From Minisyncoccota bacterium (GTDB lineage Bacteria > Patescibacteriota > Minisyncoccia > Phycocordibacterales > BOKC01): 64,000 bases of DNA. The DNA lies in the NCBI GenBank assembly GCA_030583745.1, contig CP129473.1, positions 442,783 to 506,782 on the forward strand. The letters run 5' to 3'. Below are positions 22,925 through 39,179 of this stretch, in pieces. Numbering within the stretch: position 1 is the stretch's first letter; each line of letters begins with the position of its first letter. Position numbers and translations under genes: made by a program. The notes under the pieces were generated by a model. That model searched no databases. It saw nothing but the letters and a program-made list of their open reading frames with translations, and had not been told where the DNA came from.

Positions 22925-22962
22925 TCCTTTCAAACAATTTAAGACGGCCGTCTTAAATTGTT
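22925..22962. repeat. Perfect palindrome TTCAAACAATTTAAGACGGCCGTCTTAAATTGTTTGAA (ACGGCCGT-core hairpin family)
   Basis: Seen directly; the same 8-nt core occurs at 38590-38624 and 39147-39179. Confidence 0.7.
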
Positions 22963-23005
22963 TGAAATTAAATTAATTGAATTATTTATATCAAATGCAT
23001 CAAAA

Positions 23006-24286
23006 TCAAATTCGCAAGATTTTTAGAAGAGTATTTTTGTTTTTAACTTCCCCAACAACAGCTAGATTGAGTTTTCGGTTTTGGAAAATGTCTTTGGCAA
23101 TTTTTTGAATGTCACCAGCAGTTACCGCTTTTATTTCTTTTGCCATTTGCTCCGGTGTTTCTAAAGAATGTTTCAAAACTTCTTGGTAGCCGAAAAATTC
23201 GGCCATAGCGTCAGAGGTTTCAAGCCCTAAAAATAAATTGCCAATCAAATAATCTTTGGCTTTTTTTAACTCTCCTTCCGGCACAATTTCATCCTTCAGC
23301 CGGCAAAATTCGGCAAGAATCGCGAGAATCACCTCCTCAATCCGCTTTTTATCCACGCCGGCTGAAACCGCCAAGTAACCGTGGTCGGTATATTCATCAG
23401 TAAACGATTTGACATAATAACCGACTCCCATTTCTTCGCGCAGTTTCTGAAAAAGCCGACTGGACATCCCCTGCCCTAAAACGGCGTTCAAAACTTTGAG
23501 CGCCGGCAGTTTTGAACTTTTAATTGAAAAAGTTCTAACACCTAAAATCAAATGTGTTTGGTCGGTCTTTTTTTGTTTTATTAAAATTTGCGGAGAATTT
23601 TGCCGCTCAACAACGGCCAGCTTTTTCTCCCTACTTTTACTTTTTAGATTGGCAAAAGCTTTATTCGCTTCTTTCAAAACCTCCCGTCGATTAAAATTAC
23701 CGGCGACAATTAAAGTCGTAGTGTTTGCTAAATAATGTTTGTCGCGATAAGAGACAAAATCCTCTCGCTTCATTTTTTTGACCGTCTCTCGGGTGCCGGC
23801 AATATTCCAACCAGCTGGCTGATCGCCGTAAAGAAGCGACATAAAAAGATCGTAGATATGGCGCTGGGGCGTATCTTCATACATATTTATTTCTTCAACA
23901 ATCACACCTTTTTCTTTTTCCATCTCTCCGACCGGAAAAGTTGGATGGAGATACAAATCAGAAATAATATCAACGAGCTTTTTGAAATGTTTCGGATGAG
24001 CTTTGGCGTAGTAGCCGGTAAACTCTTGAGAAGTAAAAGCGTTGTATTGAGAGCCGATTGAATCAAGCTCGCGACTCAAATCAATGGCTTTCGGCCGTTT
24101 TGTTGTGCCCTTAAAACACATATGCTCCAAAAAATGCGACAAGCCGCTGATGTTTTTGGTCTCATATTTTGAACCGGCTTCAACCATAATTAAAACCGTG
24201 ACCGCCGGATTGTCTTTGTGCGGAATGGTTATTAGCCGTAAACCGTTTTTGAGAATGGTTTTTTGAAATTTCATATTTAAAATCAA
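23006..24286 (-). CDS. M16-family zinc peptidase (insulinase-like)
   Basis: HFLEHMCFKGT inverted zincin motif (HxxEH). Confidence 0.85.
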   Translation of the reverse strand: MILNMKFQKTILKNGLRLITIPHKDNPAVTVLIMVEAGSKYETKNISGLSHFLEHMCFKGTTKRPKAIDLSRELDSIGSQYNAFTSQEFTGYYAKAHPKHFKKLVDIISDLYLHPTFPVGEMEKEKGVIVEEINMYEDTPQRHIYDLFMSLLYGDQPAGWNIAGTRETVKKMKREDFVSYRDKHYLANTTTLIVAGNFNRREVLKEANKAFANLKSKSREKKLAVVERQNSPQILIKQKKTDQTHLILGVRTFSIKSSKLPALKVLNAVLGQGMSSRLFQKLREEMGVGYYVKSFTDEYTDHGYLAVSAGVDKKRIEEVILAILAEFCRLKDEIVPEGELKKAKDYLIGNLFLGLETSDAMAEFFGYQEVLKHSLETPEQMAKEIKAVTAGDIQKIAKDIFQNRKLNLAVVGEVKNKNTLLKILRI

Positions 24287-25614
24287 TCGGAAAAAAGATG
24301 GATTAGCTCTTTTATTTGAGTTCTTTTTTGCTCGCCCGTATCGCGATCGCGGACAGTAACAGTCTCGTCTTCAAGAGTCTGAAAATCAATTGTTACGCAA
24401 AAAGGCGTTCCGATTTCATCCTGCCGACGGTAACGCTTGCCGATGTTGCCGTTGTCATCGAAAGTTACCATCGAAATTTCTTTGCGAATCATTTCATAAA
24501 CCTCTCTCGCCTTCTTTACAAGCTCCGGCTTATTTTTCAAAAGCGGAAATACCGCGACCTTAACCGGCGCGATTTCCGGCTTTAACTTTAAGTAAACTCT
24601 TTTTTCACCTCCCATTTCGTCTTCGGTGTAGGCTTCAAGTAGTACGAATAAGACAGCTCTATCAACACCACCGGAACATTCAATATCCCACGGAATAAAT
24701 TTACTCTTCGACTCTTCATCAAAATACGAAAGATCTTCATTGGAATATTCGCTATGCCTCTTCAAATCCCAATCAGCGCGGTGATGTATTCCCCATGCTT
24801 CTTTCCACCCAGCAAATGGCGTATTGTATTCAATATCCCAAGCATCTTTTGCATAGTGAGCTCTTTCATCTTCCGCGTGCTGGCGAAATCTTAGGTTCTC
24901 CTCTTTAAACCCGAGGCCAAGATACCACTCCCATGCAAATTGTTTCCAATATTCAAACCACTTCTTCCCTTCAGATTCTTCCGGCTTGATATAAAATTGC
25001 AATTCCATCTGTTCGAACTCTCTTTGTCGGAAGAGAAAATCTCTAGGAGTAATCTCATTTCTAAAAGCTTTGCCAATCTGGCCTATACCAAAAGGTATTT
25101 TGGGGTGCATAGAATCTAAAATATTTTTAAAGTTAACATGCACACCTTGAGTTACTTCCCCGCGTAAATACACTTTCTTAGATGTTTCTTCTGACGCACC
25201 TAATTTTGTTTCTACTAAGAGATTAAATACTTTCGGTTCGGACCATTCCACCTTTTCTTTCTTATGTTTCGCTTCGTGTTCTACAATCGCTTCGGGCTGA
25301 TCGGCCCTAACTCGTTCGTGACAAATTTTGCATTCCACAAGCGGATCAACCAGTCCAGCTTCACTAGTATGACCAGAAGCATCCCAAACGCTTGCGGGCA
25401 TTAAAATAGCCGCGCTCATTCCATATACATCCTCTCTATCAGAAATAAATTTTTTCCAGAAATATTGTTTGATATTATGCCTTAACTCCACCCCGTAAGG
25501 TCCGTAATCAAAAATTCCCGACAGTCCCCCGTAAATTTCAGAACCTTGGAAAATGAAGCCTCGGCGCTTGCAAAGGCTGACAATTTTGTTCATTAGTTCT
25601 TCTTTCTGATTCAT
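24283..25614 (-). CDS. glyQS: Glycyl-tRNA synthetase (alpha2 type)
   Basis: RGFIFQGSEIYGGLSGIFDYGPYGVELRHNI; class II motifs; C-terminal anticodon-binding domain. Confidence 0.85.
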   Translation of the reverse strand: MNQKEELMNKIVSLCKRRGFIFQGSEIYGGLSGIFDYGPYGVELRHNIKQYFWKKFISDREDVYGMSAAILMPASVWDASGHTSEAGLVDPLVECKICHERVRADQPEAIVEHEAKHKKEKVEWSEPKVFNLLVETKLGASEETSKKVYLRGEVTQGVHVNFKNILDSMHPKIPFGIGQIGKAFRNEITPRDFLFRQREFEQMELQFYIKPEESEGKKWFEYWKQFAWEWYLGLGFKEENLRFRQHAEDERAHYAKDAWDIEYNTPFAGWKEAWGIHHRADWDLKRHSEYSNEDLSYFDEESKSKFIPWDIECSGGVDRAVLFVLLEAYTEDEMGGEKRVYLKLKPEIAPVKVAVFPLLKNKPELVKKAREVYEMIRKEISMVTFDDNGNIGKRYRRQDEIGTPFCVTIDFQTLEDETVTVRDRDTGEQKRTQIKELIHLFSD

Positions 25615-25620
25615 AGATAT

Positions 25621-38589: not shown

Positions 38590-38624
38590 TCAATCTACCA
38601 CGGCCGTGGTAGATTGATTATAAG
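38590..38624. repeat. ACGGCCGT-core hairpin TAATCAATCTACCACGGCCGTGGTAGATTGATTA (left flank of small cassette)
   Basis: Seen directly in the sequence. Confidence 0.65.
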
Positions 38625-38650
38625 AAGGCAAATTGTTATAATCATCTAAT

Positions 38651-39145
38651 ATGATTTATAGAGGTTCATTTTCGGAACTAATTCTTAAACTACTTCTTTA
38701 CAAGACCCTCCCCTATAAAGATGTTGAGGAACTTGTAAGAAAACATAAACAATACAAAAACAAACCTAGCGCTTCTATTAGAAACACACTCACTCGATTA
38801 AGAAAGAAGGGGTTGGTCAAAAAAACTCAAACCGGCTGGTCATCCAGCAATCTGATAAATTCAGTGCTAAAAAATAACATCAATGAATTAGATAAAATTA
38901 AACTTCAAGCGTCTAAGAATAAAAAGAATGGGGAGATGATAGTAATGTATGACATACCTGAATACCTAAGGTCAAAAAGAGATATATTAAGAGATGGACT
39001 AAAGGTTCTTGACTTCAAACAAAAACAGCAGAGTGTCTGGATAGGTCCTGCCCCACTACCTGAAGAATTTATGAAATTTATTAATGATTTAAAAATTACA
39101 AAATATATAAATTTCTTTAAAGTTAAGGAAGAAGATATTGTGTAA
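38651..39145 (+). CDS. Small wHTH protein with a C-terminal Cas2/VapD-like segment (PaaX-like architecture); hypothetical regulator
   Basis: N-terminal IRNTLTRLRKKGLVKK (wHTH). C-terminal GEMIVMYDIPEYLRSKRDILRDGLKVLDFKQKQQSVWIGPAPL resembles the Cas2/PaaX beta1-alpha1 signature. Confidence 0.35.
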   Translation: MIYRGSFSELILKLLLYKTLPYKDVEELVRKHKQYKNKPSASIRNTLTRLRKKGLVKKTQTGWSSSNLINSVLKNNINELDKIKLQASKNKKNGEMIVMYDIPEYLRSKRDILRDGLKVLDFKQKQQSVWIGPAPLPEEFMKFINDLKITKYINFFKVKEEDIV

Positions 39146-39146
39146 T

Positions 39147-39179
39147 CATTTCGGCACGGCCGTCGTGAAATGATTATAT
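39147..39179. repeat. ACGGCCGT-core hairpin ATAATCATTTCGGCACGGCCGTCGTGAAATGATTAT (right flank of small cassette)
   Basis: Seen directly; shares the outer TAATCA...TGATTA arms with the left copy. Confidence 0.65.

Follow-up and report, generated by a model that had tools for sequence, protein, structure and literature searches.

A short PaaX/Cas2-like gene enclosed by a matching pair of palindromic sites is a conserved unit of candidate-phyla-radiation bacteria

The closest described systems to the gene analysed here are the phenylacetyl-CoA-responsive PaaX regulators of E. coli and Pseudomonas (structures 8a39 and 3l09), together with Rv0674 (3kfw). A review (PMC9493321) divides PaaX into a winged helix, a dimerisation motif and a C-terminal domain, and reports that in E. 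coli it binds the inverted hexamers TGATTC(N27)GAATCA, which are widely spaced, and represses its own promoter through steric hindrance. The gene studied here encodes a protein of 164 amino acids (aa) that shares the Cas2-like middle domain of PaaX and has a predicted winged helix ahead of it. It lies within a window of 64,000 nucleotides, the whole stretch of DNA that was analysed (contig CP129473.1 of a Minisyncoccota bacterium, positions 442,783 to 506,782); judging by the names of its homologues, the source organism belongs to the candidate phyla radiation (CPR), as a member of the Paceibacteria type. Two palindromic sites enclose the gene, one reaching into its promoter and the other starting on its stop codon. 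This site-gene-site bracket is a conserved, family-wide architecture across CPR lineages, in which the sequence of the sites changes along with the protein lineage. We infer from the sequences that the protein is a minimal, self-bracketed autorepressor of the PaaX family with no evident regulon. The family-wide bracket, the co-variation of site and protein, and the placement of the upstream site over a leaderless promoter are new here; no description of a site-gene-site PaaX/Cas2-like unit was found in the searchable literature.

Three zero-loop palindromes in the window, H1, H2 and H3 (Table 1), have the core ACGGCCGT in common. The core occurs four times in the window against 0.33 expected, a count reached in 0/100 shuffles, and the fourth copy (33902), within the ArgS coding region, is non-palindromic. 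H2 and H3 bracket the gene: 27 nt separate the end of H2 from the ATG, and bases 1-3 of H3 are the stop codon TAA. The first-pass annotation, made from the letters alone, had placed the open reading frame (ORF) exactly where it lies and had proposed the three palindromes with their shared core, with the right sequences and with coordinates that were 3-5 nt off. It had also described their AT-rich arms as different. The arm sequences do differ, but all three sites fit AWCAWT-N18-AWTGWT with 0 mismatches and in an identical register relative to the core, and H2 and H3 follow the pattern TAATCA-N22-TGATTA, in agreement with the common ends that had been noticed at the two gene-flanking palindromes. 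No second member of the PaaX_M-type family was found in the window.

Table 1 Features of the site-gene-site unit and of the solo site, in window coordinates
Feature	Position	Strand	Description
164-aa gene	38651..39145	+	Predicted winged helix-turn-helix, linker helix, PaaX-middle/Cas2-like ferredoxin fold
Domains of the 164-aa protein	residues ~1-66; 68-89; 95-158		Predicted winged helix-turn-helix; linker helix; PaaX-middle/Cas2-like ferredoxin fold
H2, upstream site	38584-38623	.	40-bp perfect palindrome, TTATAATCAATCTACCACGG followed by CCGTGGTAGATTGATTATAA; outer hexamers TAATCA/TGATTA
H2 core	38600-38607		ACGGCCGT
H3, downstream site	39143-39176	.	34-bp imperfect palindrome, TAATCATTTCGGC-ACGGCCGT-CGTGAAATGATTA; outer hexamers as in H2, TAATCA/TGATTA
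H3 core	39156-39163		ACGGCCGT
Predicted sigma-70-type promoter of the 164-aa gene	38614..38642	+	Best match in the region, 10/12 positions plus TG
-35 element	38614-38619	+	TTGATT
-10 element	38637-38642	+	TATAAT, after a 17-nt spacer and TG
H1, solo site	22928-22967	.	40-bp perfect palindrome, TTTCAAACAATTTAAGACGG followed by CCGTCTTAAATTGTTTGAAA; between the M16 peptidase stop (23006) and the AI-2E transporter start (22770)

We inspected 26 homologous units, with identities of 22-99%, that come from Paceibacteria, Taylorbacteria, Nomurabacteria and Saccharibacteria. Both cognate sites are present in 22 of them, one near-upstream of the ATG and one at or shortly past the stop codon; two of the other four units lie on truncated contigs, and two have the upstream site only. 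The earlier suggestion that the palindromes bracket the gene like terminal repeats was borne out, and the bracket is a conserved feature of the family. In a Candidatus Paceibacter genome, the homologue (58% protein identity) is again flanked by the SHMT and thymidylate kinase genes, so that the gene order of the glyA-tmk locus, which had been singled out for comparison, is kept in this relative. Both flanking spacers contain ACGGCCGT-core palindromes there, with different arms (TTAACAATTTGyC). A homologue of 45% identity has ATGTACACACCTC-ACGGCCGT at both flanks, a Saccharibacteria homologue (29%) has TTCTATTT-ACGGCCGT at both flanks, and the two sites of a Taylorbacteria homologue (38%) are identical at 38/38 positions.

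Across the family, the core takes the forms ACGGCCGT, ACGATCGT, CGCGACCGCG, ACGCTATAGCGT, GCTATCGC and GCGATAGC. The arms vary among orthologues, and within one unit they are usually near-identical, matching at 38/38 positions in locus L019, 36/36 in L010 and 30/31 in L017. Two paralogues on a single contig have a separate site pair each, and the type of site follows the subfamily of the enclosed protein. When the 240 ORFs of the loci were ranked by the similarity of their upstream and downstream flanks, family genes took 10 of the top 11 places. The odd one is an IS200/IS605-type Y1 transposase between ArgS and dUTPase (L011 5161-5853), which is absent from the window. An exhaustive search (E <= 1e-3) returned 1654 family clusters at 50% identity; among the best 150 of the 1654 cluster representatives, nearly all measure 116-230 aa, and the source annotation of family members reads 'hypothetical' or 'PaaX' only.

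Some further observations concern individual sites and the contigs that carry them. On top of its flanking ACGATCGT pair, the P0005 unit contains an imperfect third site directly before the ATG (L006 7957-7990), ATCACCAGTCCCGACGGTCGTCTGGAATGGTGA, whose core is ACGGTCGT. The Logan contig with P0003 (L001, 1-1080) is a perfect 1080-bp palindrome centred on a ACGGCCGT site, an assembly fold-back artefact. Contigs with family members are often only ~1 kb long, and L005 and L007 terminate inside a palindrome, which indicates that the family sites break metagenome assemblies.

The co-variation of site and protein bears on which protein is likely to bind the sites. Xer sites of the dif/cer type consist of 11-bp arms about a 6-8-bp centre, against a layout of 11 + 8 + 11 here, and gene modules flanked by pairs of Xer-type sites exist on Acinetobacter plasmids. 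A different host factor, such as a Xer-type recombinase, might accordingly bind the sites, the gene being a passenger. We give this explanation hardly any credence. Within one genome the arms vary around a constant centre, which is the opposite of Xer sites; sites of a given type go with a given subfamily of the enclosed protein, and the sites occur almost exclusively beside genes of the PaaX_M-type family.

As single strands, H1 and H2 fold strongly (-16.1 kcal/mol, z ~ -8.5), as would be expected if the palindromes were ordinary transcription terminators or RNA hairpins with a coincidentally shared loop. H2 on the minus strand resembles an intrinsic terminator, with an 18-bp stem, a 4-nt loop and the tail AATTTTTTAT, and it was the only one of the three to fit when intrinsic terminators were called in the window (H1 and H3 were not called); at the position of H1, two relatives have an ordinary G+C-rich terminator hairpin past the M16 peptidase gene. 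However, H2 belongs to a divergent promoter region, in which it precedes the -10 element of the 164-aa gene, and the core and its pairing with a PaaX_M-type gene are kept across classes. Self-complementarity outside the core is missing in L017, L029 and L033: in L017 and L029 the two sites are instead reverse complements of each other (at 30/31 positions in L017), and those of L033, as well as L013 and L020, are asymmetric and in direct orientation. Mismatches cluster, uncompensated, in the 3 nt adjoining the core in H3, in L007 and in the upstream site of L003. No T-run is consistent past the downstream sites across the family, and Rfam gave no family matches, so that a known RNA family was rejected as well. 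Since there are site pairs that do not fold and no consistent T-tail, we conclude that the sites are not terminators, and a chance resemblance of ordinary hairpins is very improbable. Hairpin formation is probably a by-product of dyad symmetry and not a conserved property, with a secondary terminator role of H2 or H1 being possible in the source genome.

In the AlphaFold model of the 164-aa protein (alignment of 10 homologues, mean pLDDT 79.6), residues 7-65 form a winged helix of three helices and a beta hairpin, residues 68-89 a long helix, and residues 95-158 a beta-alpha-beta-beta-alpha-beta, ferredoxin-like domain. A Foldseek search against the PDB placed Rv0674 (3kfw) and E. coli W PaaX (8a39) at the top, with alignments spanning 131-159 columns, followed by many Cas2 chains (probability 0.97-1.0, TM-score to target 0.44-0.64) and by VapD. 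Pfam PF20803 PaaX_M ('PaaX central Cas2-like domain') matches residues 97-160 with 60.2 bits against a cutoff of 24 (E 2.2e-16), and the PaaX_M domain is precomputed for all homologues. The Cas2 models stay under their cutoffs (PF09827, 17.1 bits against 23.8; TIGR01573, 14.6 bits against 24.5), TIGR02277, the full-length PaaX equivalog, scores 18.2 bits against a cutoff of 264.55, and NCBIfam yielded sub-threshold matches to PaaX, BlaI and Cas2 only. The N-terminal part has weak matches to Penicillinase_R/BlaI (sub-cutoff) and to the S19e winged helix and none to the Pfam PaaX N-terminal model, while the family profile found weak S19e winged-helix, Cas2 and PadR matches only among PDB sequences.

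PaaX measures ~305-316 aa and has a C-terminal ligand-binding domain. The 164-aa protein has no match to Pfam PaaX_C, and its chain stops at residue 164, directly past the middle domain; it is the first two thirds of a PaaX, without the C-terminal ligand domain. The Cas2/PaaX-middle signature that had been read from the translation is supported by the model and by the profile and structure searches, and the winged-helix-like N-terminus by the model and the fold matches; Cas2, VapD and PaaX, the three folds suggested for comparison, are all among the Foldseek matches. The outcome that had been named as damaging to that annotation, no PaaX similarity together with ordinary terminators, did not occur.

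Cas2 and VapD have the same beta-alpha-beta-beta-alpha-beta fold as residues 95-158 and a similar beta1-alpha1 signature, YDI...R..R...L......Q.SV. We take the signature of the 164-aa protein, MYDIPE...R..R, to be more Cas2-like than that of E. coli PaaX. Unlike Cas2, the 164-aa protein scores under the Cas2 cutoffs, its domain is fused to a predicted winged helix, and neither cas1, another cas gene nor a CRISPR array is nearby: the 64-kb window contains no CRISPR-like direct repeat array and no other cas gene, as the annotation had stated, and no cas genes were seen adjoining any homologue at the loci examined. A CRISPR link was rejected on the absence of an array from the window. PADLOC matched no defence system and returned weak Cas2/Csa3 matches only, on which grounds a defence system was rejected. 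A phage origin was likewise discarded, since no relatives were found on viral contigs and the two PHROGs matches of the window protein were marginal (E 0.05-0.06), with no matched stretch past threshold.

The residues that are invariant in the family, Y100, D101, P103, E104, R110 and S128, all fall within the Cas2-like domain, the invariant MYDIPE motif included. This distribution, together with weak but repeated Cas2 matches that land on the motif, would suit a fused, single-protein module of toxin-antitoxin-like (TA-like) design, in which the winged helix autoregulates and a Cas2/VapD-like nuclease is kept low by repression from two operators. The MYDIPE motif presumably aligns with the beta1 Asp of Cas2, and VapD is one of the Foldseek matches. 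The unit also behaves in a TA-like manner, being autonomous, putatively palindrome-autoregulated, present as several divergent paralogues per genome and variable among relatives, and a relative has a HigB/HigA-like pair at the exact spot of H1. Against this design, the unit is without a second gene, the nuclease activity is purely putative, the DIPE motif may have no more than a structural function, as a helix cap, PADLOC matched no system, and the corresponding domain of PaaX is described as a dimerisation motif (PMC9493321). We consider it distinctly unlikely.

The right arm of H2 contains the -35 element of the predicted promoter of the 164-aa gene. Between the -10 element and the ATG there are 8 nt, so that the mRNA should be leaderless. 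In most family members a TATAAT-like hexamer stands 6-8 nt ahead of the ATG, and in every one the upstream site covers at least part of the -35, spacer or -10, with the site centre at -18 to -47. Within the window, an SD-like (Shine-Dalgarno-like) motif precedes only 5/53 long ORFs, and a strong -10 hexamer lies 5-9 nt before the ATG in 13/53 (e.g. 22777-22782, 38637-38642). Leaderless mRNAs thus seem common in the source organism.

From the PaaX-like domains, the site layout and the overlap with the promoter, we infer a dimeric, minimal PaaX-type repressor; that the unit is such an autorepressor, with two putative operators, is in our view the probable reading, if not a secure one. Binding of the sites by the protein, repression, looping or roadblock, and dimerisation are suggested by position, co-variation and homology. 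A dimer would bind long palindromic operators, in which two outer arm motifs (AWCAWT in the window, with the ends TAATCA/TGATTA) are set symmetrically about a G+C-rich palindromic core (ACGGCCGT). Its two winged helices would contact the arms across the conserved core, each joined by the long linker helix to the Cas2-like domain, the dimerisation module in PaaX. Occupancy of H2 over the -35 would block RNA polymerase, and the protein would shut off its own synthesis. H3 on the stop codon would serve as a second operator, most likely cooperating with H2, either by DNA looping across the gene (~556 bp) or as a protein roadblock by which neighbouring transcription would be kept out of the unit. 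The outcome would be a self-contained, self-limiting gene unit.

This arrangement parallels the spaced inverted hexamers and own-promoter repression of PaaX (PMC9493321), in that the TAATCA/TGATTA palindromes overlap the gene's own -35, with binding putative. What sets the family apart from PaaX of E. coli and Pseudomonas is the conserved, G+C-rich centre of its site and the family-wide presence of a second site at the stop codon, as well as its occurrence in CPR bacteria. PaaX regulates the phenylacetate (paa) genes, none of which was seen in any locus of the 164-aa protein family.

Small helix-turn-helix proteins acting on palindromes over their own promoter are familiar from the autorepressors that loop between two operators (lambda CI at OL-OR, GalR, DeoR) and from the C proteins of restriction-modification systems. 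Compared with these, both operators here bracket only their own gene, no regulated partner is evident, and looping is putative. A wider regulon was rejected, as no extra cognate sites occur in ~190 kb of flanks at 12 other loci. Nor was regulation of glyA or the thymidylate genes accepted as the main role: glyA probably starts at ATG 38472, ~110 bp past the near edge of H2, and homologous units elsewhere adjoin unrelated genes (IleS/ArgS, PGK, HtpX/gatC, tRNA synthetases).

Several findings weigh against an autorepressor of this kind. The regulator has no nearby targets other than those flanking its own gene, and what a reduced genome would gain from it is not obvious. Conservation is higher at the centre of the site than in the arms, an uncommon pattern for the operator of a simple dimeric winged-helix protein. 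Proteins of a short subfamily (122-137 aa) are truncated in the N-terminal domain and yet retain the sites, so that DNA reading may fall to a different part of the protein. The relative orientation of the two sites is inverted in L017 and L029 and direct in L033, L013 and L020, and the sites of L003 and L010 are 115-165 nt away from the gene ends. Finally, the confinement of the invariant residues to the Cas2-like domain could point to an activity beyond dimerisation.

The units could instead represent a new, selfish class of autonomous single-gene elements in CPR bacteria, whose Cas2-like domain reads the core or acts as a nuclease. Reading of the core would resemble the behaviour of the Cas2 dimer, which sits on duplex DNA in the Cas1-Cas2 complex. 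On this account, which we hold to be unlikely, the unit may be TA-like or occasionally mobile and not a cellular regulator. A slowly turning-over selfish module and the fused TA-like design described above are both kept alive by the lack of further cognate sites in the flanks, the better conserved site centre, the short subfamily, the invariant residues, the antisense units, the paralogue and H1.

The last three of these bear on mobility, that is, on whether the unit is a mobile or once-mobile single-gene cassette whose ends are the sites and whose protein helps or regulates movement. Its layout resembles that of insertion sequences and of modules between paired recombination sites, with repeats at both ends, the promoter partly in the left repeat and the stop codon in the right one, and the repeats of L017 (30/31 positions) and L029 are true inverted repeats. 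As in insertion sequences, the orientation is variable, ~8/15 units being antisense to both neighbours, as random insertion would give, and a solo repeat is found elsewhere. In a genome 86% DNA-identical to the window, a 55%-identical paralogous unit lies between IleS and ArgS, a spot that holds a 452/440-aa gene instead in the window and in a more distant relative. Unlike insertion sequences, however, the unit has no transposase or recombinase domain in its 164-aa protein and is present in a single copy in the window. The order of glyA, unit and tmk is kept at 58% protein identity, one homologue has the same single context on 21 contigs, and the repeats of L033, L013 and L020 are direct instead of inverted. 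Moreover, no target-site duplication is visible at the window unit, and no relatives were found on viral contigs. The conserved synteny argues that mobility is not active. We conclude that units are gained and lost over time and that their sites are not the ends of an active mobile element; a cassette that is, or once was, mobile seems to us a rather improbable explanation. Of the hairpin-bounded cassette described in the first-pass annotation, the bracket of sites therefore stands, and the sense of a mobile element is unsupported, given the retained synteny and the single context on 21 contigs.

The solo site H1 shares 90% identity with the site lying downstream of a homologue (60% identical) from a different genome (L001). 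H1 is missing at the same spot in relatives that are 88-89% identical there, and none of four relatives has a family palindrome in the spacer between the M16 peptidase and AI-2E transporter genes, which led us to discard a conserved regulon target as the role of H1. The site is solo and specific to its lineage, and its pattern, including its resemblance to another genome's homologue site, fits a remnant left after loss of a unit through recombination between its two repeats. Small ORFs of 29-36 aa exist past H1 and are unconvincing. The spacer is an insertion hot spot: in the Candidatus Paceibacter locus L041 (1757-2364), a Gp49 (HigB-like) and HTH (helix-turn-helix, HigA-like) pair is inserted at the H1 spot, together with a 101-aa ORF. 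At the IleS-ArgS spot, the 452-aa gene of the window (31905-33263) encodes a secreted-looking protein with GIGT repeats and no Pfam match, with a 55% identical counterpart in L011 (1563-2885). In L006, a closer relative, the 452-aa gene is replaced by a paralogous PaaX_M unit and ~370 bp of non-coding DNA.

The unit is surrounded by a near-complete thymidylate-synthesis cluster (35033-42102) of dUTPase, glyA (SHMT), tmk, dCMP deaminase, thyA and folA genes, with a GIY-YIG fragment at 41318-41503; the same cluster surrounds the L003 homologue. Two genes at 35557-37058 (196 and 293 aa) have no Pfam match and lie in DNA of ~49% G+C against ~40% elsewhere; both have a clear Shine-Dalgarno motif, as very few genes of the window do. 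A portion of the segment aligns to L003 3182-3961, where genes for 192 and 310 aa, also with no Pfam match, occupy the same position; the two genes therefore seem conserved in relatives, and the segment looks like an old acquired island. At 28253-31766 two ORFs (528 and 557 aa) share the isoleucyl-tRNA synthetase between them, which could reflect a frameshift, a split gene or an assembly error; in L006 the enzyme is a single 1157-aa protein with a histidine-phosphatase domain inserted at the split point of the window. Short telomere-like repeats (GGGTTTAGGG / CCCTAAACCC) occur in the intergenic spacers at 10742-10868, 18384-18403, 31790-31815 and 34992-35022, and a G+C-rich tandem duplication of 63 nt (two copies, 97% identity) lies at 58019-58144.

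CPR bacteria have tiny genomes with very few known regulators, and it is a puzzle that such reduced genomes retain several self-enclosed ones. In practice, the sites carry a warning, as perfect palindromes break or fold back metagenome assemblies. With a matching site pair of its own for each gene, the family constitutes a natural protein-DNA recognition set for DNA reading of the PaaX and Cas2 type. If the Cas2-like domain contacts the core or is catalytic, the family would bear on the origin of Cas2, and if the units are selfish modules, they would represent a living Cas2-type domain tied to palindromic repeats outside CRISPR.

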